20,456 nt of DNA from an uncultured Nitrososphaerales archaeon (GTDB lineage: Archaea; Thermoproteota; Nitrososphaeria; Nitrososphaerales; Nitrososphaeraceae): the NCBI GenBank assembly GCA_963709405.1, contig CAVPXM010000059.1, forward strand, positions 1 through 20,456. The letters are read 5' to 3'. The notes under the pieces are model-generated. The model searched no databases. It was not told the DNA's origin and was given only the letters and a program-made list of their open reading frames with translations. Made by a program: the position numbers and the translations under genes. This document shows, one piece after another, positions 945 through 17,858 of this stretch. Within the stretch, counting starts at the first letter, position 1; each line of letters opens with the position of its first letter.

Positions 945-1337
945 ATGGCCTGTATCCAGAAGAAGAATGAGAAAGAGGATGATAAAAAGGATAATCGCAC
1001 CATCATAACCATTCCAGATGAATTGTGGGATGAGATTAAAGTAATTTTACCCAGAGAGAAACCACTCAAAACAGTGGGTCGGCCAATTGTACCATACAGA
1101 AAGGTACTTGATGGAGTTTTATACATCCTTAGAACTGGGTGCCAATGGAAGATGCTACCCAAAGAGTATGGATCGGGTTCCACATGCCATAGAAGGTTTC
1201 AGGAATGGAATAAACTGGATGTTTTCAAAAAGACATGGGTTCGATTACTGAAAATATATGATCAAATCATTGGTATCAACTGGACATGGCAATCAATCGA
1301 TAGTATATCCATAAAATCGCCTTTAGGGGGGCGATGA
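945..1337 (+). CDS. IS5 transposase, N-terminal part (DUF4096-like)
   Basis: Motifs IPDELW, GRP, VLDGVLYILRTGCQWKMLP, STCHRRFQEW and the first catalytic Asp (SIDS). Confidence 0.92.
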   Translation: MACIQKKNEKEDDKKDNRTIITIPDELWDEIKVILPREKPLKTVGRPIVPYRKVLDGVLYILRTGCQWKMLPKEYGSGSTCHRRFQEWNKLDVFKKTWVRLLKIYDQIIGINWTWQSIDSISIKSPLGGR

Positions 1338-1858
1338 CCGGAAATAATCCCACGGACAGGAGCAAACTGGGCACAAAAAGACACATTTTAACAGACAAAG
1401 AAGGTATACCGCTTTCGGCGGTCATTTCATCTGCTAATACCCATGACATTAAACTGGTAATAGATATGGTTGATAATTCAGTTATTAAAAAGCCGTCATC
1501 ATCATCCAAACCGAAATCAAGAAGAAAGGGAAGAAGGAGAAGGTTACAACATCTATGTCTTGACAAAGCATATAATTCCACACAAGAAGAACAGGAACTA
1601 ATCAGGCGGGGATATGTACTGCACATTAGTCCCAAAAGAAAGAGGGGTGAAAAAGAGGAGGAGGTCAAGACGGAAACGCAACCTTCCTTAAACCGGAAAA
1701 AACATTCTGCAAAAAGATGGGTTGTGGAAAGGACAAACTCATGGCACAACAGGTTCAGAAAACTGTTCACACGGTATGAAAAGAAGGCAGAGAACTACCT
1801 TGGACTGGTACAGTTCTCCTGTTTTATGATCATCTGTAGAAAGATATTTTTGGGATAG
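1334..1858 (+). CDS. IS5 transposase, C-terminal DDE part (-1 frame relative to the first ORF)
   Basis: Motifs GTKRHILTDKEGIPL, LCLDKAY and RWVVERTNSWHNRFRKL. It follows a G6 run (1326-1331) and an ATGA overlap, and its stop codon lies inside the right TIR. Confidence 0.92.
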   Translation: MTGNNPTDRSKLGTKRHILTDKEGIPLSAVISSANTHDIKLVIDMVDNSVIKKPSSSSKPKSRRKGRRRRLQHLCLDKAYNSTQEEQELIRRGYVLHISPKRKRGEKEEEVKTETQPSLNRKKHSAKRWVVERTNSWHNRFRKLFTRYEKKAENYLGLVQFSCFMIICRKIFLG

Positions 1859-2150
1859 GTTCTAAGTATAAAATATTGTGAATATATAAAGGAGTTTACC
1901 TGAAGCTTCTAGTACGATAGCTATTCTCGAAGCCTTCCAAGGCAGCAAAGCTGCAATCGACAATCTTTATCTTCGGTTTCTTCATAGTAATCTAAGATTA
2001 ACTGATGTACGCTTGCTGAGATTAAACTATAGAAAATAAATTCGTGTAACTACTTCACTTGGTACGTATTCACTGTAGTATTTGTTGCAATGCAATACGA
2101 TCAGAAGATATAAAAACACGTCTTAACAGGTATCAAATGCATGAATACAT

Positions 2151-3756
2151 ATGAAAAAGAGCAATGATGATAAGACTAACTCCAAACCTTTTGGACATAT
2201 GGAATATAAGATAAGAAAGGAAGTCTCTATTTTAAGAGTCTTATATGTTACATTGATGACTATTTCTTTATTCTGTGGTATTGCCATTACTTCAGTATTC
2301 ACTGCGGGCCAATATACCATTAGTCCTGCGATGGCTATAGGTGATAATAATGCTAGCAGTACGACGATCGCTCACAATAATACTCCAGAACAAAAATCTA
2401 TCACTACCAATGATACTAAAGCACACCCGCATAAGGTATTTACAATGATAGCCGAAGACGCTAGTATTGAAATATCTCCTGGCGAGCGAGTAAAGGTATG
2501 GACATTTAATGGAACAGTTCCTGGGCCTACGCTGAGATTTACGGAAGGAGATAATGTCACTATTCACTTTAAAAATAATGCACCAATGGCACATACATTA
2601 CATATGCATGGAACGCACGATGCAAAGAATGATGGTGCATTTCCTTTGATACTACCAAATCAAAGTTATACTTATAACTTTATAGCTGAGCCTGCAGGGG
2701 CGTTTCTGTATCATTGTCATGCTCCACCTACGTCACTCCACATTAGAATGGGAATGTATGGCTCGTTGATTATAGATCCAAAAGGAAATGACAGTTCAAT
2801 TCTAAAACCGGCTAGAGAATATGCATTAGTATTAAGTGAATATGACCCTGTGAATCCAGAAGCATTTATTCCTAAATATTACCCTATGAATGGCTATGCT
2901 GATCAATACATGGATAATAATTCTTTGCAAGCAAGACAAAATGAGCTTGTTAGATTTTATGTAGTTAACATCGGAACCACAATACCGTACTCATTTCATT
3001 TGCACAGCACTATTTTCAAAGTGTACCAATCTGGATTAATATCAAATAAACCTATAGATGCTCAAACAATATCAATTGGTCCAGGGGATGCTGCAATAGT
3101 TGAAGCAGTATGGAAATCTCCTGGAACATATTTTGTCCATAGTCACGGATTACAAGAAGAAAGAGGAAATATGGGAGAGATACATGTGATTCCAACAGCT
3201 GAAAAGAATAATAATAATACTGTTGCTTCAACATCAAACTACTCTTCTCTAAAACCAGTTACAAACAAGAGCGTATCAATGATAGCTTGGCAGTATCAGT
3301 TGCAAAAAAAATTACAAAAACCAATCATCTCCAATGGTAGCGGAGAAGAAATAGCAAATTCCTCAGAACCTCTTGTTTCTAAAATGCAGCCTAGTCCAAT
3401 GACAGAAGGACAAGGGCATCAAGAGCATTTGGCCACAAATTTTACTTCTAATCGTAACAACACAAATAATACCGCATCAACTACCCAAGTAAGCATTGAA
3501 AAAGGTTCTTGGGATACTAAGCAAAAAGATAATTACTCGCCAAAAGAAATCATTGCGCATGTTGGCTCTACAATTACATGGATAAATGATGACACGTTGC
3601 CTCATACTATAACAAGCGATAGAGTCTGGATTGTTTGATTCTTCCATTCTATCAGCGGGGCACAAATGGATGCATACATTCGTCAAAATTGGAGATTATG
3701 AATATCATTGTACCCTGCATCCTTGGATGAAAGGGAGTGTAAAAGTGATAAGTTAA
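2151..3756 (+). CDS. Membrane-anchored/secreted two-domain multicopper oxidase with C-terminal plastocyanin-like cupredoxin domain (one frameshift at ~3621)
   Basis: N-terminal hydrophobic helix. Domain 1 has HTLHMHG and YHCHAPPTSLHIRMGM; domain 2 has FHLHS and VHSHG. A third domain starts WINDDTLPHTITS and continues in the +1 frame as SGLFDSSIL...YEYHCTLHPWMKGSVKVIS* to TAA 3754-3756. Confidence 0.9.
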
Positions 3757-4140
3757 TAGTCATATATTGGGAATTAAATTTTGGTTTGAACGAATCTATA
3801 CAATACGGAATAAGCTTCCTAGGTCGAAATATATTTTGTTTTAGTTACCATTATTTTTACCAATTCGGTTGGAAATTGGAGAACAAGATCAAAACCTCAG
3901 AATTTGACTCACTACCAATTCAACACCGTTTTATGTTCATAAAGAGACATTTTCTTTTCTCAATGCGAATCACACTATTGAAACTAAACAAGCTACCGTG
4001 TTTAAGCGCAATTAGCTGGCCATTATGAAGACCATTTTATCGCCGGTTATTGACAAACTAGTCATATTTGAATACCATCTCATTTTTCCTTTTGTTGTAA
4101 TAGTTCAACGGCTTCTGCAGAAAAGGCTTTCTTAATTAAC

Positions 4141-4457
4141 TGTTGTACTTGCACGGATAGGTTACATTTCTAATTACCTACATGGGTTACACTTTTCTGT
4201 TTAGTTCTCGTATGTGTACTGGATGTAATTAACCTTTGTAGGAACATCTCCGATGGAGTAAGACCATTTATGCCTCCATGTTCTCTGGTTTCGTTATATG
4301 CTTTAACAAACATGTCGTATCTTTGTTTACCATCATCTATGTTTGGTATACCTTCTAATGCTATGAATTCATTCTTTACAATCTTGTTATATGCTTCTAC
4401 TTTGCCCTGTAACTGCGGCTATAGTCTATAATGTCACCTATGTCAGTAAGTACAACA
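4141..4457 (-). mobile_element. Non-autonomous, internally deleted IS481-family element (MITE-like, 317 bp)
   Basis: TGT...ACA ends, 28-bp imperfect TIR (TGTTGTACTTGCACGGATAGGTTACATT vs TGTTGTACTTACTGACATAGGTGACATT) and a 6-bp target duplication ATTAAC at 4135-4140 and 4458-4463. Confidence 0.88.
4170..4418 (-). pseudogene. IS481/rve-type transposase C-terminal fragment
   Basis: PQLQGKVEAYNKIVKNEF...AYNETREHGGINGLTPSEMF matches the integrase-core C-terminal signature. No start codon or N-terminus. Confidence 0.85.
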
Positions 4458-4643
4458 ATTAACTCAATAGAACGGATCTCTCTCACAAGTTGCTATCCTA
4501 TACTAAATTATGATAATTTAATAGCATTATGGAAACTATTCTTACCAAATTGTATCTAATAGTACAATACTATCTCCACATTTTGTGGTTCGATGTTTGC
4601 ACCATATCGCTTAAATTACACAAACGACCTAATACTATCGGGT

Positions 4644-5061
4644 ATGCAATCTAACAGGGCTTCTATGTTTAATTTTACAGAAAGTAAGCCCAAATTGCTT
4701 GCAATAATATCAGTTGTTGTAATAGGAGCTGCTAGCAATACCTGTTATTTTGCCACATATAGGTCACGTTTACATGATCTACCATATTCTACTTCACCTT
4801 GTGAGTCTGATCATATCTATTTTCCTTGGAACCGTAGCCATTATCGCCTACAGGAGAAATAGTTCAAGTAGGCTTTTATTTATGGCATTAGGCTTTTTGT
4901 CACTGGTGGTAATCGAATGTCTCTATCTATTGTTTGCAACAGTAAATATTGAGGATATTATAATACCTGTCGTAAGGATTGAATTGCCTCACATAATTCT
5001 GTTTGCCATGTTAACTCTATTTGGTATTGGGGTATTTAGGGTGAACAATAAGAAATTATGA
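4644..5061 (+). CDS. Small multi-pass membrane protein (frameshift at ~4731)
   Basis: The frames join as KLLAIISVVVIGA/LAIPVILPHIGHVYMIYHILLHLVSLIISIFLG..., giving about four hydrophobic helices with several His. Its stop overlaps the next start (ATGA 5058-5061). Confidence 0.65.
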
Positions 5062-5637
5062 ATTTGAGATTAGACACATCAAACGGGACATCTCATCTTA
5101 TAGAACCTAGTGCTCAGGCTTTTCAAGAAGTCAGGAGCGGTATTGATGAATCACTATTGACTTGTATCGACAGAAATCCTGGTGTCCGATATAGAGAGTT
5201 GCTCAGAATATCTCGTCTTGGCAATGGCGTTTTAACTTATCATCTTTCGATTCTGGAGAGAATGGGGAAAATAAGGGTCGATAGAAAAAGAAGCAAGATA
5301 ACACGATATTATCTCACAGATGTTCCCGATGAAGACACTGATCTTATAGGCTCGATGAGAAATAAGGTGACAAGACAGACTTATTCTCTTCATATTAGAA
5401 CATGATATGTGTACGTTTAGCGAAATCGTTGAGAACAGTGGAAAGGCACAATCAACAATATCTTGGCATCTTAATAGATTAAGGGATGTGGGAATTATCT
5501 CTGTTTCGATTGGAGAACGCTCACACCATTATACAGTAGTCGATAGCAGAGAGGTCAAGAAGATATTATTTACGTACAAGGAAGCCTTTTTGGATAAAAT
5601 TGTAGACAACTACGTTGGTATAATGGATCAACTGTAA
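5058..5637 (+). CDS. Winged helix-turn-helix transcriptional regulator with two tandem ArsR-like wHTH domains (frameshift at ~5379)
   Basis: NPGVRYRELLRISRLGNGVLTYHLSILE...ITRYY and, after removing one base, RQ/LILFILEHDMCTFSEIVENSGKAQSTISWHLNRLRDVGII. ORFs 5058-5405 and 5407-5637 form one gene. Confidence 0.82.
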
Positions 5638-5661
5638 ACCTAAACTTTTACTATATGATCA

Positions 5662-6255
5662 ATGTCTACTAGAAATCACAAACATTTACCTGGCCTGTTT
5701 GGCCCAGTCGCATTATCATTACTGTGTTTTTTACTTTTTATAAACATGACACTTGTGGAACAGAAGATAGCACTAGCAGATACAATCAAAGGCGCAATAC
5801 GTCAGAGAATAGGTAATTACGATATGGAGATGAAAACTATTCCGCCCAATCCAGTCGAAGGTACAAATACAAAAATTCAATTAAGAATAGGGAGTGTTGA
5901 AGGTGATGAATTAGTTGACATCCCGGTTGTTATTAGATTATCCAAAGGAGGATTGGAACTAGCAAGAACCAATCCTATATCAGTAACGTACGGCCATTAC
6001 ATATTTCCATATACATTCAATCAAACCGGAATATACTCGTTAGATGTTGATGTATATGATACATCATATAATAGCCAAAACATCACTTTTACTTTTCCGG
6101 TAACCGTCATCAGTCCCTATTTGTCCTTCTTTATGCCTTCGCAACCTTTGAACGTAGTGGCTCTCGAAATTGTGCTGGTTGTAGCCTCGATAATATGTGG
6201 TGTAGTTGGTACGATTTATATTAGAAGGAAGAAAGCCCGCGCCATGGAATCTTAG
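5662..6255 (+). CDS. Surface protein with signal peptide, Ig-like (YtkA/FixH-like) domain and C-terminal TM anchor
   Basis: N-terminal hydrophobic stretch, beta-rich core GHYIFPYTFNQTGIYSLDVDV, and a C-terminal TM helix followed by RRKK. The family assignment is by pattern only. Confidence 0.7.
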   Translation: MSTRNHKHLPGLFGPVALSLLCFLLFINMTLVEQKIALADTIKGAIRQRIGNYDMEMKTIPPNPVEGTNTKIQLRIGSVEGDELVDIPVVIRLSKGGLELARTNPISVTYGHYIFPYTFNQTGIYSLDVDVYDTSYNSQNITFTFPVTVISPYLSFFMPSQPLNVVALEIVLVVASIICGVVGTIYIRRKKARAMES

Positions 6256-6573
6256 GCTTTGGTCCACCGTGAAAAGTACGAGCTAATCCTGATGTCTTTT
6301 GCATGTCGTTCTCCTCACCTTCTACTACTTTGAGATTATTAATTTTAGACCCAATCTCTATAATGCATGCATGTACGAAATTTGAAAACTAGACTTCATC
6401 GAATGTCATCATTTTCATTTTGCAATTCCACATACACAATAGAAGACTCATTTATAATTGTTGGAAATCTCTGTCAAAAGGATGACAGTTATAACGAGAT
6501 GAAACGAGACGATATTACTCATTCATACCTGAACGGTATATAATCTCGGTAATGCGGAGAATCTGCTTACTTT

Positions 6574-8406
6574 TTATGATTTAACTTCTTTTTCTATAGT
6601 ATGTGGTTCTTGTTCTTCTTCATGTATTCTCAATTGTAATGGGATGCTAAAGGAAAAGGTAGCTCCTTTACTGCGATCTCCATTATTCTGGCCCCAAATT
6701 CTACCACCATGTGCCTCTATAATACTTTTAGATATGTATAATCCCAATCCTGTCCCTTGCAGTGATTTGGTCGCAAATTTTGTAAACAATCTCGAAAGCA
6801 TCTGTGGATCTATGCCGGGGCCAGTATCACTTATACTAACTATTGCCTCCTCATAATTCTTCTGTACTGATATTGACACTGTACCATAGTCTGTAAACTT
6901 AATGGCATTGCCAAGGAGATTAGATAAGACTTGAGCAAGTCTGGTTCTATCGGCTACGACTAAGATATCTTCTCGAGAAGACGAATATTCAATATTTGCA
7001 TGCCTGTCCTCTTTTCTGATTTGCGTTTGGAAATCTACGATAACATTAGAGATTAATTCGTTTAACTTAAATCGTTCCTTCTTTAGCTCCAAAGTGCCAC
7101 TTTCGATCCGGGTTACATCTAAAATATTTTCTGAAACCTTCTGCAGTCTCTTGGCGTTTCTGACCACTATGTCAATTAATTCTTGCCGTTTTGTCGGATC
7201 TAGACCTTCCGATCCAATGATAGGGGAAAGACTAAGGATTGGTTGAATAGGGGTACGTAATTCGTGAGCTGCAATATTGATAAACTCGTTTTGCATATCG
7301 TGGGCTTTTTTTAATTCCTCATTGACTAGATGTTCAGCCCAAAGCAATTCGAATACTGATTTAAATGAATCCACGCCAGGTTTGCTATTGGAATACACAC
7401 TAAACCCAATGGCCTCCGAGGAAGTCTCTGCATCCGGCCTAGTTACTTCTACACGTAAAAATCTTGAACTATCAGCTATGAACATTCCAGCTGAAGAATC
7501 ATTACCATCAAGAACTCGAATATTAGGGGCATTAGTAGATATTCTTATTGCAATGTTTGAATTTCTTTCACTCAACGGACAGATCATTTTTACTATTTTT
7601 CCTCTATTAGACAAGTTGATCAACTGATCGACTATTCCTATTTTATCAATTCTGATCATTGCTTTGTCATTCGGAAGTAAGAGCAAAGCTTCAGTCTTTA
7701 CGGATTTTACAAGTTCTATAAAAACTTGAGTTACCTTTTCAGGGTCGGTAATTACATCAAGAAAATCTGGTTCTGTTCCGTGTTCTATAGATTCTATCCT
7801 GTCCCGGGCATCTACGCCTGTACCCCATAATTCCTTAAAGATCGAAATAAAGTGATCTATGTAGGCAGGTTCACTACTAACTAGTAAATTATGAATAGTA
7901 TCATGGTAATTTGCGCTGCTTTGGATACCTTTACCACCACTGACTGCATGATTAACTTCTATTTCATGCAAGCTGGCAATCATCTCCTTGTCCGAAACTG
8001 CAAAGTCAATTGGGGGCATATTTTTTACATGTCTTATTTGCACACCTAATTTTAGAAATTCTTTGACTATATCGATGCTACTATTATCTACAGTGGTGAT
8101 CCATCTAATACCTCTATGTTCTCCATTATGGAAACTAGCCATAACCTTCTGATATAAATCAAAGTAGTTGTTATATGCAGATCTTATGCTACTGGATTTT
8201 AAACAGGCTAAAAATTCGTTAGAGCCTTCTAAAACCCTTCTCCCCTCGCGTAGTATTTCGTCGTAATCACGTATTACTTTGATCTCTTTTAGAACATTTG
8301 TTAGATATTGTTTCATTTCTTGCTCTGTTAATGATGCTTTGATACCGCTTTCTTCAGTCAATAGTTCTTCTTGCTGTACGGTAACTGAAACTACCTTTCG
8401 TTCCAA
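6574..8406 (-). CDS. Sensor histidine kinase, cytoplasmic part (HisKA + HATPase_c with upstream TrmB/PLD-like domains)
   Basis: H-box FINIAAHELRTPIQPIL, N-box QVLSNLLGNAIKFT, G1 ISDTGPGI, F-box LFTKF, G2 GTGLGLYISKSIIEAHGG. Confidence 0.93.
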   Translation of the reverse strand: MERKVVSVTVQQEELLTEESGIKASLTEQEMKQYLTNVLKEIKVIRDYDEILREGRRVLEGSNEFLACLKSSSIRSAYNNYFDLYQKVMASFHNGEHRGIRWITTVDNSSIDIVKEFLKLGVQIRHVKNMPPIDFAVSDKEMIASLHEIEVNHAVSGGKGIQSSANYHDTIHNLLVSSEPAYIDHFISIFKELWGTGVDARDRIESIEHGTEPDFLDVITDPEKVTQVFIELVKSVKTEALLLLPNDKAMIRIDKIGIVDQLINLSNRGKIVKMICPLSERNSNIAIRISTNAPNIRVLDGNDSSAGMFIADSSRFLRVEVTRPDAETSSEAIGFSVYSNSKPGVDSFKSVFELLWAEHLVNEELKKAHDMQNEFINIAAHELRTPIQPILSLSPIIGSEGLDPTKRQELIDIVVRNAKRLQKVSENILDVTRIESGTLELKKERFKLNELISNVIVDFQTQIRKEDRHANIEYSSSREDILVVADRTRLAQVLSNLLGNAIKFTDYGTVSISVQKNYEEAIVSISDTGPGIDPQMLSRLFTKFATKSLQGTGLGLYISKSIIEAHGGRIWGQNNGDRSKGATFSFSIPLQLRIHEEEQEPHTIEKEVKS

Positions 8407-9705: not shown

Positions 9706-10604
9706 ATCTTCAGGCAGGATTTATATTCATACAAGATCTATCTATACTTTTAAAATAGAAAATCACAAGCCATCCGGTTAATTCTTTGTCACAAGTCACC
9801 AAGATTGAAAGTCCGGCTGAAATATGTTAGGCTCCTTCTCCTCGTCTTCGTATCTCGTAGGAGTGATGTACCAAAGCCACCCAATTGAAGGTTACAACTT
9901 AAAGGAGCATTACACTATACATTTCCGTGACTCCTGCATTATAAAGCCATTTTAGGAACACCTGAGAAATGTCATTTCCCGTATTTGTACGATGTTTCTA
10001 TCAAGATTCCAGCCCGTACTTACGATATTTGATATCTTCTCCCGTGGAGGTCACATTCATGTCCACAGCTTTTTTCGAAATCATCTGAGCCACTAATGTT
10101 CATGCTGTCATAACATCTGTCGATACAACTACACGTGAATGCTTAATGCCCATCAAATTGTGCGAATAGTCCGTGACGAAGCCGACATTGAAAATGACAA
10201 TGTGGCACATTAGGCCTTGAATGTCGCTAGACGTCTTTTCAGACTGGATGGCGATTGTAGTGAATACTCACACCCATTGGTACAATGAATTATTTTTGAA
10301 ATCTAAAATAGATCTACTTACTTTTCCACAAGGTATCTTCATCCTAGGATGATGGCAGATTCATTCTGTCAAAATAATAACTCGTTACTTAATAAATGTC
10401 AATTAAAATCTATAATTATTCATTAGGCACAAGCCTGCATTTACAAATAACGAATAATAATGTTATTGAGTAAATATGGCGAAATCTAGTGATTTTTAGA
10501 CTGTCAAGCATGTCCTGGTACAAGAAGTTGATAGAAAATTGATAGTTACTATAAATTTGCTTCAATACAAAAGACTTTAATCTGCGTTTTGTGTCCGATA
10601 TTCT

Positions 10605-10742
10605 ATGCAAGAAATTCAAAAAGCAAAATGTGCATCATGTGGTGTTACGTTTGTATCTGAAAATGCAAGCACATTATGTCCGTCATGTGCTGAGAATCAG
10701 GGTCACAGTCATGGACATAGTGGCTGTGGTTGTGGACACTAG
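10605..10742 (+). CDS. 45-aa zinc-ribbon-like peptide with His/Cys-rich tail
   Basis: MQEIQKAKCASCGVTFVSENASTLCPSCAENQGHSHGHSGCGCGH*, with two CxxC pairs plus GHSHGHSGCGCGH. It is absent from the ORF track, being shorter than any ORF listed there. Confidence 0.8.
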   Translation: MQEIQKAKCASCGVTFVSENASTLCPSCAENQGHSHGHSGCGCGH

Positions 10743-10902
10743 TAGGTCTAGTATCTAAATCCCTATTCCAGTGAAATCCTACCCAATTATTTTGCTTTGC
10801 AATCAAGGGTTATATTTAATTAAACGATTCTGTTTGCGTAGACTACTTTATCGCAGTGAAATACAACTACGTCAGGAGCATAATAGGTTCTGTATTGACT
10901 AA

Positions 10903-10921
10903 GAACCTATCCGAAAAGTAG
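10903..10921 (+). repeat. Isolated IS5 terminal sequence (solo left end)
   Basis: GAACCTATCCGAAAAGTAG is 18/19 identical to 11078-11096, is similar to the TIR at 891/1862 and is preceded by TTGACTAA. Confidence 0.75.
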
Positions 10922-10925
10922 TTGA

Positions 10926-11077
10926 GCCGTAATTTGACTAATATAGGATTGAAATGATGACTAGGCGGTGTATACCGAACCCCGCCTAGATGGTTGTAAT
11001 TTGACTAATATAGGATTGAAATGATGACTAATGAGAACAAAACAAGTAATGCGAGAAAAATGTTGTAATTTGACTAA
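10926..11077 (+). CRISPR. Orphan CRISPR mini-array: 30-bp repeat, 2 spacers, third repeat interrupted by IS5
   Basis: Repeat GTTGTAATTTGACTAATATAGGATTGAAAT is full at 10993-11022, has its last 27 nt at 10929-10955 and its first 16 nt at 11062-11077. Spacers are 37 nt (10956-10992) and 39 nt (11023-11061). The GTT...ATTGAAAN ends are typical of class 1 repeats. No cas genes in the window. Confidence 0.8.
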
Positions 11078-11465
11078 GAACCCATCCGAAAAGTAGAGTT
11101 TTATTGAGTTATAAGCAAAGTGTGTTTGATCAATAAAGATAAGCTGTACTGCAAGTATCTTCTGAGTTGTTGTATTGATATCAGAGGTTAGTGGAGTTGA
11201 TTCATCTTACTGCATACCTGATGTTGTTTGGGACAGGATCATTGCAGTGCTATCTCCATCAATACGTAGGAGGAAGAAAGAGGCTGGTCGTCCAAGAATG
11301 GATGACAGGAAGGCTATGAGTGCTATTTTCTACGTCCTACGTACAGGCTGTCAGTGGAATGCCCTACCTTCAAGTACAGTACATGACAGATTCCAAGAAT
11401 GGAGAAAGGCTGGTGTTTTCAAGCCAAAATATGGAGAGAATAGTCAAGAAACAACGTTAAGATGA
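11078..11465 (+). mobile_element. Truncated IS5-family element (left end plus transposase N-terminal fragment)
   Basis: Left TIR GAACCCATCCGAAAAG follows TAA. ORF 11175-11465 has IPDVVW, GRPRMDDRKAMSAIFYVLRTGCQWNALP and STVHDRFQEW. It lacks the DDE part and the right end. Confidence 0.85.
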
Positions 11466-12575: not shown

Positions 12576-12687
12576 TAAAAGACCCATGTAAAATATACTA
12601 TTTATTAATTTGTCCACAACCTCTATATCATAAATTGATCATTCATCTATTAGGTAGTTTGACCAATATTCTTTTTAACATATTGCT

Positions 12688-13703
12688 GCTTTGTTGCACA
12701 AAATCATTATCATATAGGTATGAGTTTGTTGACCAATTGAGATTTAGCTAACATGTAATGAGATTATTGTTGGACATGATTAACTGGTCTTTTTATAACA
12801 AATCGCTAGTTAGGCGAGGTGAAGTTATTCTAGATTTTGATGTCATAGATAGTTGGTATAGTGAGTTGGACTTAATGAATGATGGAAAGAGGGGTGGACA
12901 GTACCACTATCCAGATTCGTTTATCCAATTACTAGGTTACATGAGGGTATATTTTCATCTGCCATACCGCCAAGCAGAAGGCGTAGTCATAGCTCATGCT
13001 GGTAATAAGAAGATACCATCTATTCCAAACTACAGTACAATTAACAGACGTATTAATAACCAGGATATCAGAATCAGCGAACGACATGAAGTAGGTAATG
13101 ATGACGACATCATTATAGCATTAGATAGTACAGGAATCAAAGTTGCTAATAGAGGTGAATGGATACGACATAAATGGCACGTAAGAAGAGGTTATCTGAA
13201 AATACATGTAGCAGTAAACATCAAGAATAAGAAGATTATTTCTTTGGAGGTTACTAGTGAAGAAGTACACGATGGCAAGATGCTAAAGAAGTTGATTGAT
13301 AATGCTTCTGCAAATAACAATGTAAAGGGTGCGTTAGCAGATGGTATGTATGACAGTAATAAGAATTTTAGATATCTATCCAAGAACCATATTAAACCTG
13401 GTATAAAGACAAGAAGTAATTCCAAGGTCAAGACAGGCAACTGTCAAGCAAGGAATAGGTCTGTAATGAGACAACAAACAAATCTCAAAAGATGGAAACA
13501 TAGCGTGAGCTATGGACAAAGGTGGATGGCAGAAACGGTATTCTCGTCTATCAAAAGAACGTTTGGCGAGTATGTAACTGCAAGAAAGTTTCAGAATATG
13601 GCCAAAGAGATGTTGCTAAAAGCATCACTGTATAACATGTTTGCTATCGGGATGTAGAGATATAGATAATGTACGAATGATAAAATGATTCATGCAACAG
13701 AGC
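12688..13703 (+). mobile_element. IS5-family (IS903-like ends) insertion sequence
   Basis: Left end GCTTTGTTGCACAAAATCATT; right end reverse-complements to GCTCTGTTGCATGAATCATT. Single transposase ORF and no matching target duplication. Confidence 0.87.
12758..13657 (+). CDS. IS5-family DDE transposase (likely start 12776)
   Basis: NWSFYNKSLVRRG, IALDSTGIK, YLKIHVAV, ALADGMYDS and YGQRWMAETVFSSIKRTFG. Confidence 0.93.
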   Translation: MRLLLDMINWSFYNKSLVRRGEVILDFDVIDSWYSELDLMNDGKRGGQYHYPDSFIQLLGYMRVYFHLPYRQAEGVVIAHAGNKKIPSIPNYSTINRRINNQDIRISERHEVGNDDDIIIALDSTGIKVANRGEWIRHKWHVRRGYLKIHVAVNIKNKKIISLEVTSEEVHDGKMLKKLIDNASANNNVKGALADGMYDSNKNFRYLSKNHIKPGIKTRSNSKVKTGNCQARNRSVMRQQTNLKRWKHSVSYGQRWMAETVFSSIKRTFGEYVTARKFQNMAKEMLLKASLYNMFAIGM

Positions 13704-16929: not shown

Positions 16930-17858
16930 GGTAATACCTAAGAAGTTGGAACAGTTCTTACCATTATTTTAGCTAGTAATCGGAAGATATCTTCGTTCCT
17001 ATGGTTGAATCTAAATTCTATTTCTTTAAGGTACAGGTAAAAGTACTGTTTGGGTACTCCTCGATAATGATACAACCAGGTCTTTGCATAACTCCAGAAT
17101 CCTTCAATACCATTGATATGACTAGTATCTTCACGTACATATTCTTCCATTCGATGAGCAATTATCTGATGTTTTCCGATTAGATCTAATGAAGCATATG
17201 CAGTATGGTCATCGGTATAATACAAGGAACCCTTCTTAGTATGGAGTTTAATTAATGGAATTAATGTATCATGTATTCTGTCAGATACAGGAAATGTGAT
17301 GACCTTGCCATTCCTCTGATATATTCCAAATACCAGGCTTTTACCTTCTGCACCCCATCCGCGTTTTCCTTTCCTATGTCCACCAAATAATGCTTCGTCT
17401 ATTTCTATTTCTCCTGACAGCTTCTTCAGCTCCTTTAATTTCTGAAGTGATTCATTGTAGATTGATTGTCTGAATACTCTGAATGTTCTCTCTATTGTGG
17501 CCAAGCTAAGTGGAACATAAAATCGGATTCTGTACGCTGGTACTCCAAGAGCATAGAGATAGAGGAGGTGCACTAGTATATCAAGTGGGAAATAAAACTC
17601 TCCAAGATAAGTTCCTGTCAACTCTCCAAATTTGTATCTGCAACGTTTGCATCCAAACCTCTTATCTTTAAGATGGTACAACAATCGATATCCACATCTT
17701 GGACATCGTCTCCTTCCTTTCCATCTAGCATGACGCAAATATACGCGGCTTTTTGTCACACTTCCAGCGAGTTCTATAGGACTAGATTCACGCACGCATC
17801 ACGAATAGGGCACTAGAAATTATCCCTTATTATCTGTTCCAAGTTCTTGGGTATTACC
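16930..17858 (-). mobile_element. IS1595-family insertion sequence
   Basis: 25-bp TIRs GGTAATACCTAAGAAGTTGGAACAG (16930-16954) and 17834-17858 match at 23/25. The flanks (TATAATAA / AAAATTTA) are not duplicated. Confidence 0.92.
16938..17795 (-). CDS. IS1595-family (ISXO2-like) transposase
   Basis: Zn ribbon CPRC...CKRC, EIEIDEALFGG, KGKRGWGAEGK, YYTDDHTAY, HINGIEGFWS and YLKEIEFRFN. Confidence 0.94.
   Translation of the reverse strand: MRESSPIELAGSVTKSRVYLRHARWKGRRRCPRCGYRLLYHLKDKRFGCKRCRYKFGELTGTYLGEFYFPLDILVHLLYLYALGVPAYRIRFYVPLSLATIERTFRVFRQSIYNESLQKLKELKKLSGEIEIDEALFGGHRKGKRGWGAEGKSLVFGIYQRNGKVITFPVSDRIHDTLIPLIKLHTKKGSLYYTDDHTAYASLDLIGKHQIIAHRMEEYVREDTSHINGIEGFWSYAKTWLYHYRGVPKQYFYLYLKEIEFRFNHRNEDIFRLLAKIMVRTVPTS

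Follow-up and report, generated by a model that had tools for sequence, protein, structure and literature searches.

A short CRISPR array at positions 10926-11077 of a 20,456-nt stretch of DNA from an uncultured Nitrososphaerales archaeon appears to be a decayed member of a multicopy cassette, in which a fragment of a type I-B-class CRISPR array was captured and amplified by a composite transposon of the IS5 family of insertion sequences (IS). We put the probability of this reading at roughly 0.75. The stretch, called the window in the following, is the whole of contig C59 (CAVPXM010000059.1) of the source assembly GCA_963709405.1 (G000), and positions given without a contig refer to it; other G numbers denote relatives.

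The general picture that emerged from a search of the genome with up to 8 mismatches is that the window array is one of many. The 46 repeat matches formed 18 clusters, namely 14 mini-array loci with 1-5 repeats each, a solitary repeat (C13:43231), a cas-adjacent array on contig C46 and two single 8-mismatch matches, which we take to be due to chance. The 33 spacers of the mini-arrays belong to seven types (B, 12 copies; A, 6; D, 5; C and E, 3 each; F and G, 2 each) that keep a consistent order, with a subset that varies from locus to locus; the window contains B and E, and its nearest sister copies are located at C63:38134 (93% identity) and C21:283326 (92%). The spacers are thus common to several loci and without a detectable protospacer, as opposed to being diverse, locus-specific records of foreign DNA. 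Divergence amounts to 0.043 per site for the repeats, to 0.009-0.053 for spacers A, C, D and F and to 4-7% in pairwise comparisons of IS-B, the IS5-family element described below, and these similar values are consistent with passive co-evolution. A first-pass annotation, made from the window alone, had considered the array an orphan, either the stump of a larger array or a private stand-alone unit. The search of the genome for the repeat and for cas6 revealed a cas-adjacent type I-B array on C46. The window array is not unique, as the same cassette with the same spacers is present at 14 loci, in addition to the solitary repeat. The window array is one member of a multicopy cassette and looks more like hitch-hiking CRISPR debris than like private immune memory.

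The repeat itself is a genuine CRISPR repeat of the type I-B class, one of the Cas6/8-nt-handle kind, because it resembles the cas-adjacent I-B array of the same genome and arrays in many relatives; the class suggested by the first-pass annotation thus holds. The C46 repeat (GTTTAAATCGAACTATTATAGGATTGAAAG) shares 23 of its 30 positions with the consensus of the mini-arrays. In G001 (C111), where the gene order is cas6-array-cas8-cas7(Csh2)-cas5-cas3, the repeat is identical to that of the mini-arrays at 25 of 30 positions, and the array likewise finishes in a truncated repeat, homologous to the half-repeat that closes the mini-arrays. The 19-mer at the 3' end of the repeat, ACTAWTATAGGATTGAAAS, was found with at most one mismatch in 48 of 121 genomes of the family (a tally that counts G000 itself and G092, flagged as unpublished). 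The largest arrays had 91 repeats, and controls with the reversed pattern yielded 0-1. The exact repeat is combined with unrelated, unique spacers in the congener G006 and in one metagenome contig; as a pattern it had no match in species-representative genomes, none in viral contigs and one in metagenome contigs. A metagenome contig array with other spacers also finishes in GTTGTAATTTGACTAA. The spacers, with 36-39 nt, and the repeat end ATTGAAAN are also in keeping with the type I-B class.

The mini-arrays are linked to IS5-family elements on both sides. Directly before the first repeat at 11 of the 14 loci lies End1, the 24 nt that remain of a terminal inverted repeat of the IS5 family. Its sequence departs in a single nt from the 24 nt with which the left end of IS-B begins and matches, over positions 1-24, IS ends in relatives with 96-100% identity. 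On the other side, nine of the 14 arrays stop where an IS has inserted behind the GACTAA of the last repeat. IS-B, an element of 988 bp, is present in six copies (93-96% identical), every one of which starts exactly at a mini-array half-repeat. The second element, IS-A (957 bp, ~82% identical to IS-B), occurs in eight full and four partial copies, two of which adjoin mini-arrays, i.e., the window copy, truncated at 11424, and C63:38307-39263. At C63:86629, only a short IS-B-like end lies beside the half-repeat. The target logo of 106 IS5-family ends outside arrays (-6, G 42; -5, A 75; -4, C 65; -3, T 102; -2, A 51 or T 54; -1, A 105) established that the IS5-family elements of this genome insert behind G-A-C-T-W-A (W being A or T) and duplicate TWA; the window has examples at 891 and 1862. 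The mini-array repeat contains GACTAA and the cas-adjacent C46 repeat is devoid of the motif. As the genome offers 3862 GACTWA sites, six independent insertions of IS-B into terminal repeats are not credible, and since all six copies are array-linked among these many sites, IS-B can only have moved jointly with the array.

Composite transposons and transporter IS carry a passenger between inverted IS ends, are moved as a unit by the IS transposase and are flanked by target-site duplications. The cassette shares the enclosed passenger and the duplication with these elements and differs from them in having a CRISPR array, which is non-coding, as its passenger and, in place of one of the two 'IS', no more than a 24-nt end. 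The clearest instance is the copy on C55, which reads, in order, IS-B left end, IS-B right end, half-repeat, array and End1, such that the IS-B left end and End1 form an inverted pair around 1316 bp (IS-B plus array plus End1). In all six congeners the sequences flanking this copy lie 88-217 nt apart on a single contig, making the region 1322-1331 bp shorter than in G000, where the composite accounts for 1316 bp and the duplication for another 3 bp. G003, G005 and G001, the congeners in which the site was inspected, have a single TTA where TTA and TTA surround the composite in G000. A version with IS-A is present on C63, flanked by TAA on either side. It is missing in five of five congeners searched, with a junction too diverged to be placed exactly. 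Inverted IS ends enclosing the unit, End1 and the far end of the IS, are thus present in the C55 and C63 copies. The earlier view that IS5 had destroyed the array is therefore too simple: the empty site and duplication at C55 and the array linkage of all six IS-B copies indicate that the IS carried and multiplied it. The 1.3-kb composites encode an IS5-type transposase only, and neither in them nor in the window were the genes tnsB, tnsC or tniQ of CRISPR-associated transposons (CAST) found, a genome-wide Tn7 search not having been made. Carriage by a virus or plasmid is not apparent either, the open reading frames (ORFs) of the window being chromosomal genes and IS transposases, and the flanks of the window, C55 and C63 copies being syntenic with congeners.

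On this basis, the following course of events can be proposed. IS5-family ends (IS1031/IS427-like, TWA-duplicating) may have trapped a short piece of an I-B-class array, the GACTAA of the repeat being the preferred insertion hexamer at which the terminal repeat is cut exactly by an IS (IS-B at six loci, IS-A at two). The inward-pointing End1 and the far end of the adjoining IS form an inverted-repeat pair around IS plus array, and a transposase would have mobilized the whole unit across the genome in the manner of a composite transposon. This transposase was probably supplied in trans by intact IS-A copies, because the frames of the IS-B transposase are broken in all six copies, with three or more breaks each; intact-looking IS-A genes are present on C58 (one 282-aa frame) and in C25b and C86 (overlapping frames of 136 and 231 aa). 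Later recombination between repeats together with loss or truncation of the IS could have produced the varied spacer subsets and the IS-less copies. The window copy would be a decayed product of this process that retains End1, two repeats with spacers B and E, the half-repeat and part of IS-A. In its present state the cassette is most likely a passenger, either selfish or neutral, although a read-through transcript could still be cut by Cas6 and loaded into the single I-B effector complex of the genome.

Several observations weigh against this reading. Three mini-array loci are devoid of End1, and five consist of End1, array and half-repeat with no adjoining IS; the right boundary of these five is not placeable because the intergenic DNA of congeners is too diverged, as exemplified by C21:283326 and C63:192306, where the array is absent in congeners and the boundaries cannot be located. 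It is possible that the cassette moves on its own, without an IS. Furthermore, the half-repeat ending in GACTAA(G) also closes arrays without an adjoining IS, in a metagenome contig and in G001, and may therefore be an older feature and not the product of these particular insertions. The 3-bp duplication fits a one-step composite transposition as well as nested events, because the half-repeat supplies the inner TAA, and the duplication argument is weakened by the fact that TWA has just two common forms. The window copy must be regarded as a remnant, because its IS-A is truncated at 11424 and the distal IS end is missing (no reverse IS end was found within 1.8 kb). Its arrival as a unit is therefore not demonstrable, and congeners give no clean empty site for it. 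The hypervariable loop of spacer B, described below, is not explained by passive decay. Finally, copy counts and absences of cas genes are provisional, as the assembly is 91% complete, is split into 100 contigs and includes at least one chimeric contig.

Among the alternatives, the one that retains most weight, albeit an unlikely one, is that the mini-arrays are functional genes for CRISPR RNAs (crRNAs) that are expressed, cut by Cas6 and loaded into the I-B complex against particular mobile elements, to the benefit of the host or the IS, along the lines suggested for arrays on viruses and on integrative and conjugative elements (ICEs). In accordance with this idea, the last 14 nt of the repeat agree with the cas-adjacent repeat except for the final base, repeat length and register are kept in 36 copies, the genome has an apparently intact I-B effector module, and mobile elements with stand-alone arrays have a precedent in thaumarchaeal ICEs (excerpts of PMC6563490). 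Processing of mini-array transcripts by Cas6 in trans is possible and would be predicted to release a putative crRNA of ~67 nt with the 5' handle AUUGAAAN, beginning AUUGAAAC/U. A contig from a soil RNA library contains a piece with spacer B, repeat and spacer C, its loose end lying behind 11021; it is a weak hint only, since carry-over of DNA is possible, and for the RNA runs interpretation was confined to the contig-covered parts of the locus. On the other hand, nothing resembling a leader precedes the arrays. The stretch 10745-10890, which had been proposed to be an AT-rich leader, has a G+C content of 35.6% compared to 37.4% for the window and is therefore not notably AT-rich; it is partly conserved in the congener G004 as ordinary intergenic DNA. 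The first repeat is abutted by the 24-nt IS end, and the DNA further upstream is different at every locus. A TATA-like octamer was not found within 150 nt upstream of any of the 11 End1-bearing copies, whereas the C46 array has TTTATATA at -81.

The searches for protospacers also argue against function. When the 33 spacers were compared with their own genome by blastn-short, only chance matches of 14-18 nt appeared outside the arrays. In 200 genomes of the family, the window array, the C30 array (A, B, B, C) and the C40 array (B, F, D), which together represent types A-F, produced only matches to the repeat or to IS ends. One match in G160 (33 nt, 91%) was considered and rejected as a protospacer, as it combines 24 nt of spacer C with 8 nt of repeat at the start of a gene and is due to chance. 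For the window array, the comparison with phages gave a single chance match (E = 0.1) and that with plasmids none, and the cores of spacers A, C, D and E, compared with IMG/VR as exact sequences, had 0 matches each, a search that would miss mismatched protospacers. In addition, the divergence of repeats and spacers is about that of IS-B, which is decayed, and no Cas1 match was obtained in the 91%-complete assembly.

A related and more doubtful idea is prompted by spacer B. In the window, this spacer folds with -15.1 kcal/mol (z = -5.06), and none of 200 shuffled sequences folded as well. Among nine copies of the same length, the 8-bp stem and both flanks are invariant, while the loop comprises 11 positions that each differ in 2-6 of the nine copies, i.e., ~0.4 differences per site versus 0.01-0.05 elsewhere; two variants occur in tandem within the C30 array (C30:63786 and C30:63853). 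An IS5-family element might accordingly be imagined to have domesticated the mini-array as cargo and, with copies at a dozen or more loci, to provide multicopy guide RNAs or repeat decoys for use in trans by an adaptation-less I-B effector, with the loop of spacer B as a diversifying specificity element rather than a sign of decay. We regard this as improbable; if true, it would constitute a partnership of CRISPR and IS outside the Tn7/CAST and TnpB/IscB paradigms. Two possible roles of the loop were examined and rejected. As a guide to insertion flanks, the longest words it shared with its own flanks had 4-7 nt, whereas those shared with the flanks of other loci averaged 4.8 and reached at most 7, and as an antisense regulator covarying with the adjoining IS it gave matches of 5-8 nt with own and foreign IS copies alike. 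The pattern of the B stem has 11 matches in G000, where two B-like hairpins lie outside arrays, and occurs in just one of 237 other genomes of the family. In this genome, G168, a B-like hairpin (L087, G168:C17, 1375-1401, minus strand) has the common stem, the preceding C and the trailing ATG and is located 23 nt behind an ORF without Pfam match, in a neighborhood of small ORFs that lack annotation. The hairpin could be related to the source of the protospacer.

It is still less probable that the loci are scattered wreckage, i.e., that separate IS insertions split one large array, the pieces of which were then dispersed by homologous recombination between IS (inversions, translocations), the array DNA never having been transposed. 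The genome is indeed full of IS5-family copies (150 end-like matches), the repeat does carry the target hexamer, and cas3 fragments on C42, C98, C90 and C76 suggest decayed CRISPR-Cas loci. However, in a single array every spacer would occur only one time, and here there are 12 copies of spacer B, six of A and five of D. End1 is joined identically to the first base of the repeat at 11 loci, which argues for one founding event followed by copying, and the C55 unit occupies an otherwise syntenic site with a target duplication.

It is very unlikely that the repeats act as RNA decoys, which would soak up Cas6 or effector subunits and shield the IS family from CRISPR targeting, similar to phage RNA anti-CRISPRs and solitary repeat units (a concept set out in excerpts of PMC8616872). 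Many repeat copies do lie outside the cas locus and on a mobile element, and the solitary repeat on C13 and a three-copy element in G020 resemble solitary repeat units, but the repeat differs from the resident cas-adjacent one at 7 of 30 positions and IS-B is already decayed. In G020, which belongs to another genus, the solitary CRISPR repeat (…TCTGACTAATATAGGATTGAAAC) resides downstream of an unannotated 291-aa ORF inside a ~1.5-kb element present in three copies (C21, C30; 96-98% identity). Finally, an element resembling a miniature inverted-repeat transposable element (MITE), with internal tandem repeats that mimic an array, would account for spacers common to several loci and for the bounding IS ends, but the proposal that the repeat is a mere part of such an element or of an IS is contradicted by the long, unique-spacer arrays that the same repeat family forms, by its position between cas6 and cas8 in G001, by the occurrence of the exact repeat with unrelated spacers and by spacer lengths and a repeat end in line with the class.

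Mini-arrays of viruses and plasmids often comprise one complete and one truncated repeat and have repeats like those of the host CRISPR-Cas system (Faure et al. 2019; Medvedeva et al. 2019; both via excerpts of the review PMC8616872). Like these, the arrays described here are very short, lack cas genes, reside on a mobile element and have host-like repeats. They differ in being part of an IS or composite transposon in the chromosome, in occupying 14 loci in one genome, in having no spacer target found in our searches, and in that the repeat matches the resident one at only the 23 of 30 positions mentioned above. Stand-alone I-B-type arrays, thought to be host-derived, have also been described in ICEs of Thaumarchaeota, and an expansion of IS5 to 43 copies in one soil ammonia oxidizer (Krupovic et al. 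2019, excerpts of PMC6563490). The archaeal lineage, the I-B-type repeats, the absence of cas genes and the residence in integrated mobile elements are shared features, whereas the ICE arrays are long (69 and 96 spacers), single-copy and subject to spacer turnover. Tn7-like elements in cyanobacteria target CRISPR repeats (PMC11837452), and IS insertions inactivate CRISPR-Cas (PMC10359306; both sources in excerpt). Here, too, an insertion preference coincides with the CRISPR repeat and an IS disrupts CRISPR loci, but the preference here is due to a 6-nt motif, GACTWA, which the repeat contains by coincidence; Tn7 genes play no part, and the outcome goes beyond disruption to the capture and amplification of array DNA. 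Neither our literature searches nor the excerpts cited here yielded an account of a CRISPR mini-array that is both IS-borne and multicopy.

Orphan and mini-arrays are usually ascribed to the loss of cas genes or to carriage by viruses, plasmids or ICEs. The cassette points to a third, testable route, in which a repeat with an IS target motif attracts an IS, becomes enclosed by IS ends and is copied through the genome. Array finders and spacer-based linking of hosts and viruses would count the same spacers repeatedly and could mistake transposon cargo for immune memory. At the same time, the cassette offers a setting in nature in which to study whether repeat-spacer units that are dispersed and leaderless still feed an effector complex, and it illustrates how IS expansion reshapes CRISPR loci in soil ammonia-oxidizing archaea.

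The anatomy of the window copy is summarized in Table 1. The 30-bp repeat was confirmed as first annotated, with a spacing of 67 and 69 nt around spacers of 37 and 39 nt, as were the bounding IS ends: GAACCTATCCGAAAAGTAGTTGAG and GAACCCATCCGAAAAGTAG are IS5-family terminal repeats in the same (direct) orientation on either side of the array. It also proved correct that no cas gene is nearby; none is present in the window.

Table 1. Features of the mini-array locus in the window
Feature	Position	Strand	Remarks
Flank TTGACTAA, ending TAA	10895..10902	+	Fits GACTWA; last 3 nt are the presumed target-site copy beside End1
End1, IS5-family terminal inverted repeat reduced to 24 nt, GAACCTATCCGAAAAGTAGTTGAG	10903..10926	+	Faces the array
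CRISPR repeat 1	10926..10955	+	Degenerate 5' end (GCC for GTT, 2 mismatches); ends ATTGAAAT
Spacer type B, 37 nt	10956..10992	+	Strong hairpin, stem CTAGGCGG/CCGCCTAG
CRISPR repeat 2, full 30 nt, GTTGTAATTTGACTAATATAGGATTGAAAT	10993..11022	+	
Spacer type E, 39 nt	11023..11061	+	Further copies at C21:283447 and C21:92647
Terminal half-repeat, 16 nt, GTTGTAATTTGACTAA	11062..11077	+	Cut directly behind the target hexamer GACTAA
5' part of IS-A, 347 nt, left end GAACCCATCCGAAAAGTAG and transposase start	11078..11424	+	Right end gone

The window repeat has two matches at ≤3 mismatches compared to none in each of 100 dinucleotide shuffles. An exact direct repeat of 35 nt runs 5 nt into both spacers (GATGA...). 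Repeat 2 is predicted to be unstructured (minimum free energy 0), as is the cas-adjacent C46 repeat. A scan of the window against Rfam at gathering thresholds returned 0 matches, and Tandem Repeats Finder did not report the array. The IS-A piece is 93.4% identical to IS-A positions 1-362, and the ORF at 11175-11465 corresponds to the DUF4096 N-terminal part of an IS4/IS5 transposase (PF13340, E = 4.8e-20). Both spacers of the window open with the same 8 nt, GATGACTA (10956-10963 and 11023-11030); at other loci spacer E starts GTCACTA and spacer B starts AATGACTA, and the shared starts in the window suggest local recombination or conversion between neighboring units. Moreover, 10882-10921 and 11057-11096 form a direct repeat of 40 nt (83% identity), and GTTCTGTATTGACTAA, immediately upstream of End1, is similar to the half-repeat in front of IS-A, so that the left boundary looks like a second, degenerate junction of a half-repeat and an IS end.

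Misassembly, which would have undermined the locus, was addressed with soil-metagenome contigs of other studies. These cover three parts separately, i.e., the unique left flank into End1 (10300-10921), End1-repeat-spacer B-repeat (10900-11021, joined to other flanks) and the junction of spacer E, half-repeat and IS-A (11038-11104). None of the contigs extends over the entire locus, which is to be expected of a repeat family.

The source assembly comprises 4.83 Mb with 37% G+C, and the host is an ammonia-oxidizing archaeon (archaeal AmoA match, E = 5e-118); sequencing runs containing the locus are mostly labeled as soil. On C46, the cas locus (1024-7570) has the order cas6, array of five repeats with unique spacers, cas8b, cas7 (Cst2/DevR type), cas5 and cas3, and its Cas6 is the sole match in the assembly. 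The first ~960 nt of C46 are a high-G+C, bacterial-looking ABC-ATPase fragment with an abrupt switch to low-G+C archaeal DNA inside cas6, so that the join at ~960 is probably an assembly chimera that cuts the only cas6. A RAMP-family match indicative of type III was not found in the 91%-complete assembly, and a simple k-mer array finder detected no other CRISPR array. Nor was a second, Csh2-type I-B system detected in G000, with no match for Csh2, and tblastn with Cas8, Cas7 and Cas5 of G001 returned nothing, cas3 fragments being all that was found. These additional fragments (HD domain and pieces of the helicase core; C42:20235-21454, C98:4194-4496, C90:3829-4309, and C76:21337-21817) have no neighboring cas7, cas5 or cas8, those on C90 and C76 are duplicates of each other, and they suggest relics of further, decayed CRISPR-Cas loci. 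The I-B layout in G000 and G001 (L066, G001:C111, 4022-11246) is unusual in that cas6 and cas8 are separated by a short array and that cas3 is not followed by cas1, cas2 or cas4; the two loci have different Cas7 types, Cst2/DevR in G000 and Csh2 in G001.

Apart from the truncated IS-A, the window contains an intact-looking IS5-family element with two overlapping ORFs (891-1862), an IS5 DDE_Tnp_1_5 element (12687-13657), the first 314 nt of which have counterparts of 98-100% identity on 10 or more other contigs, and a transposase of the IS1595 family (16938-17795).

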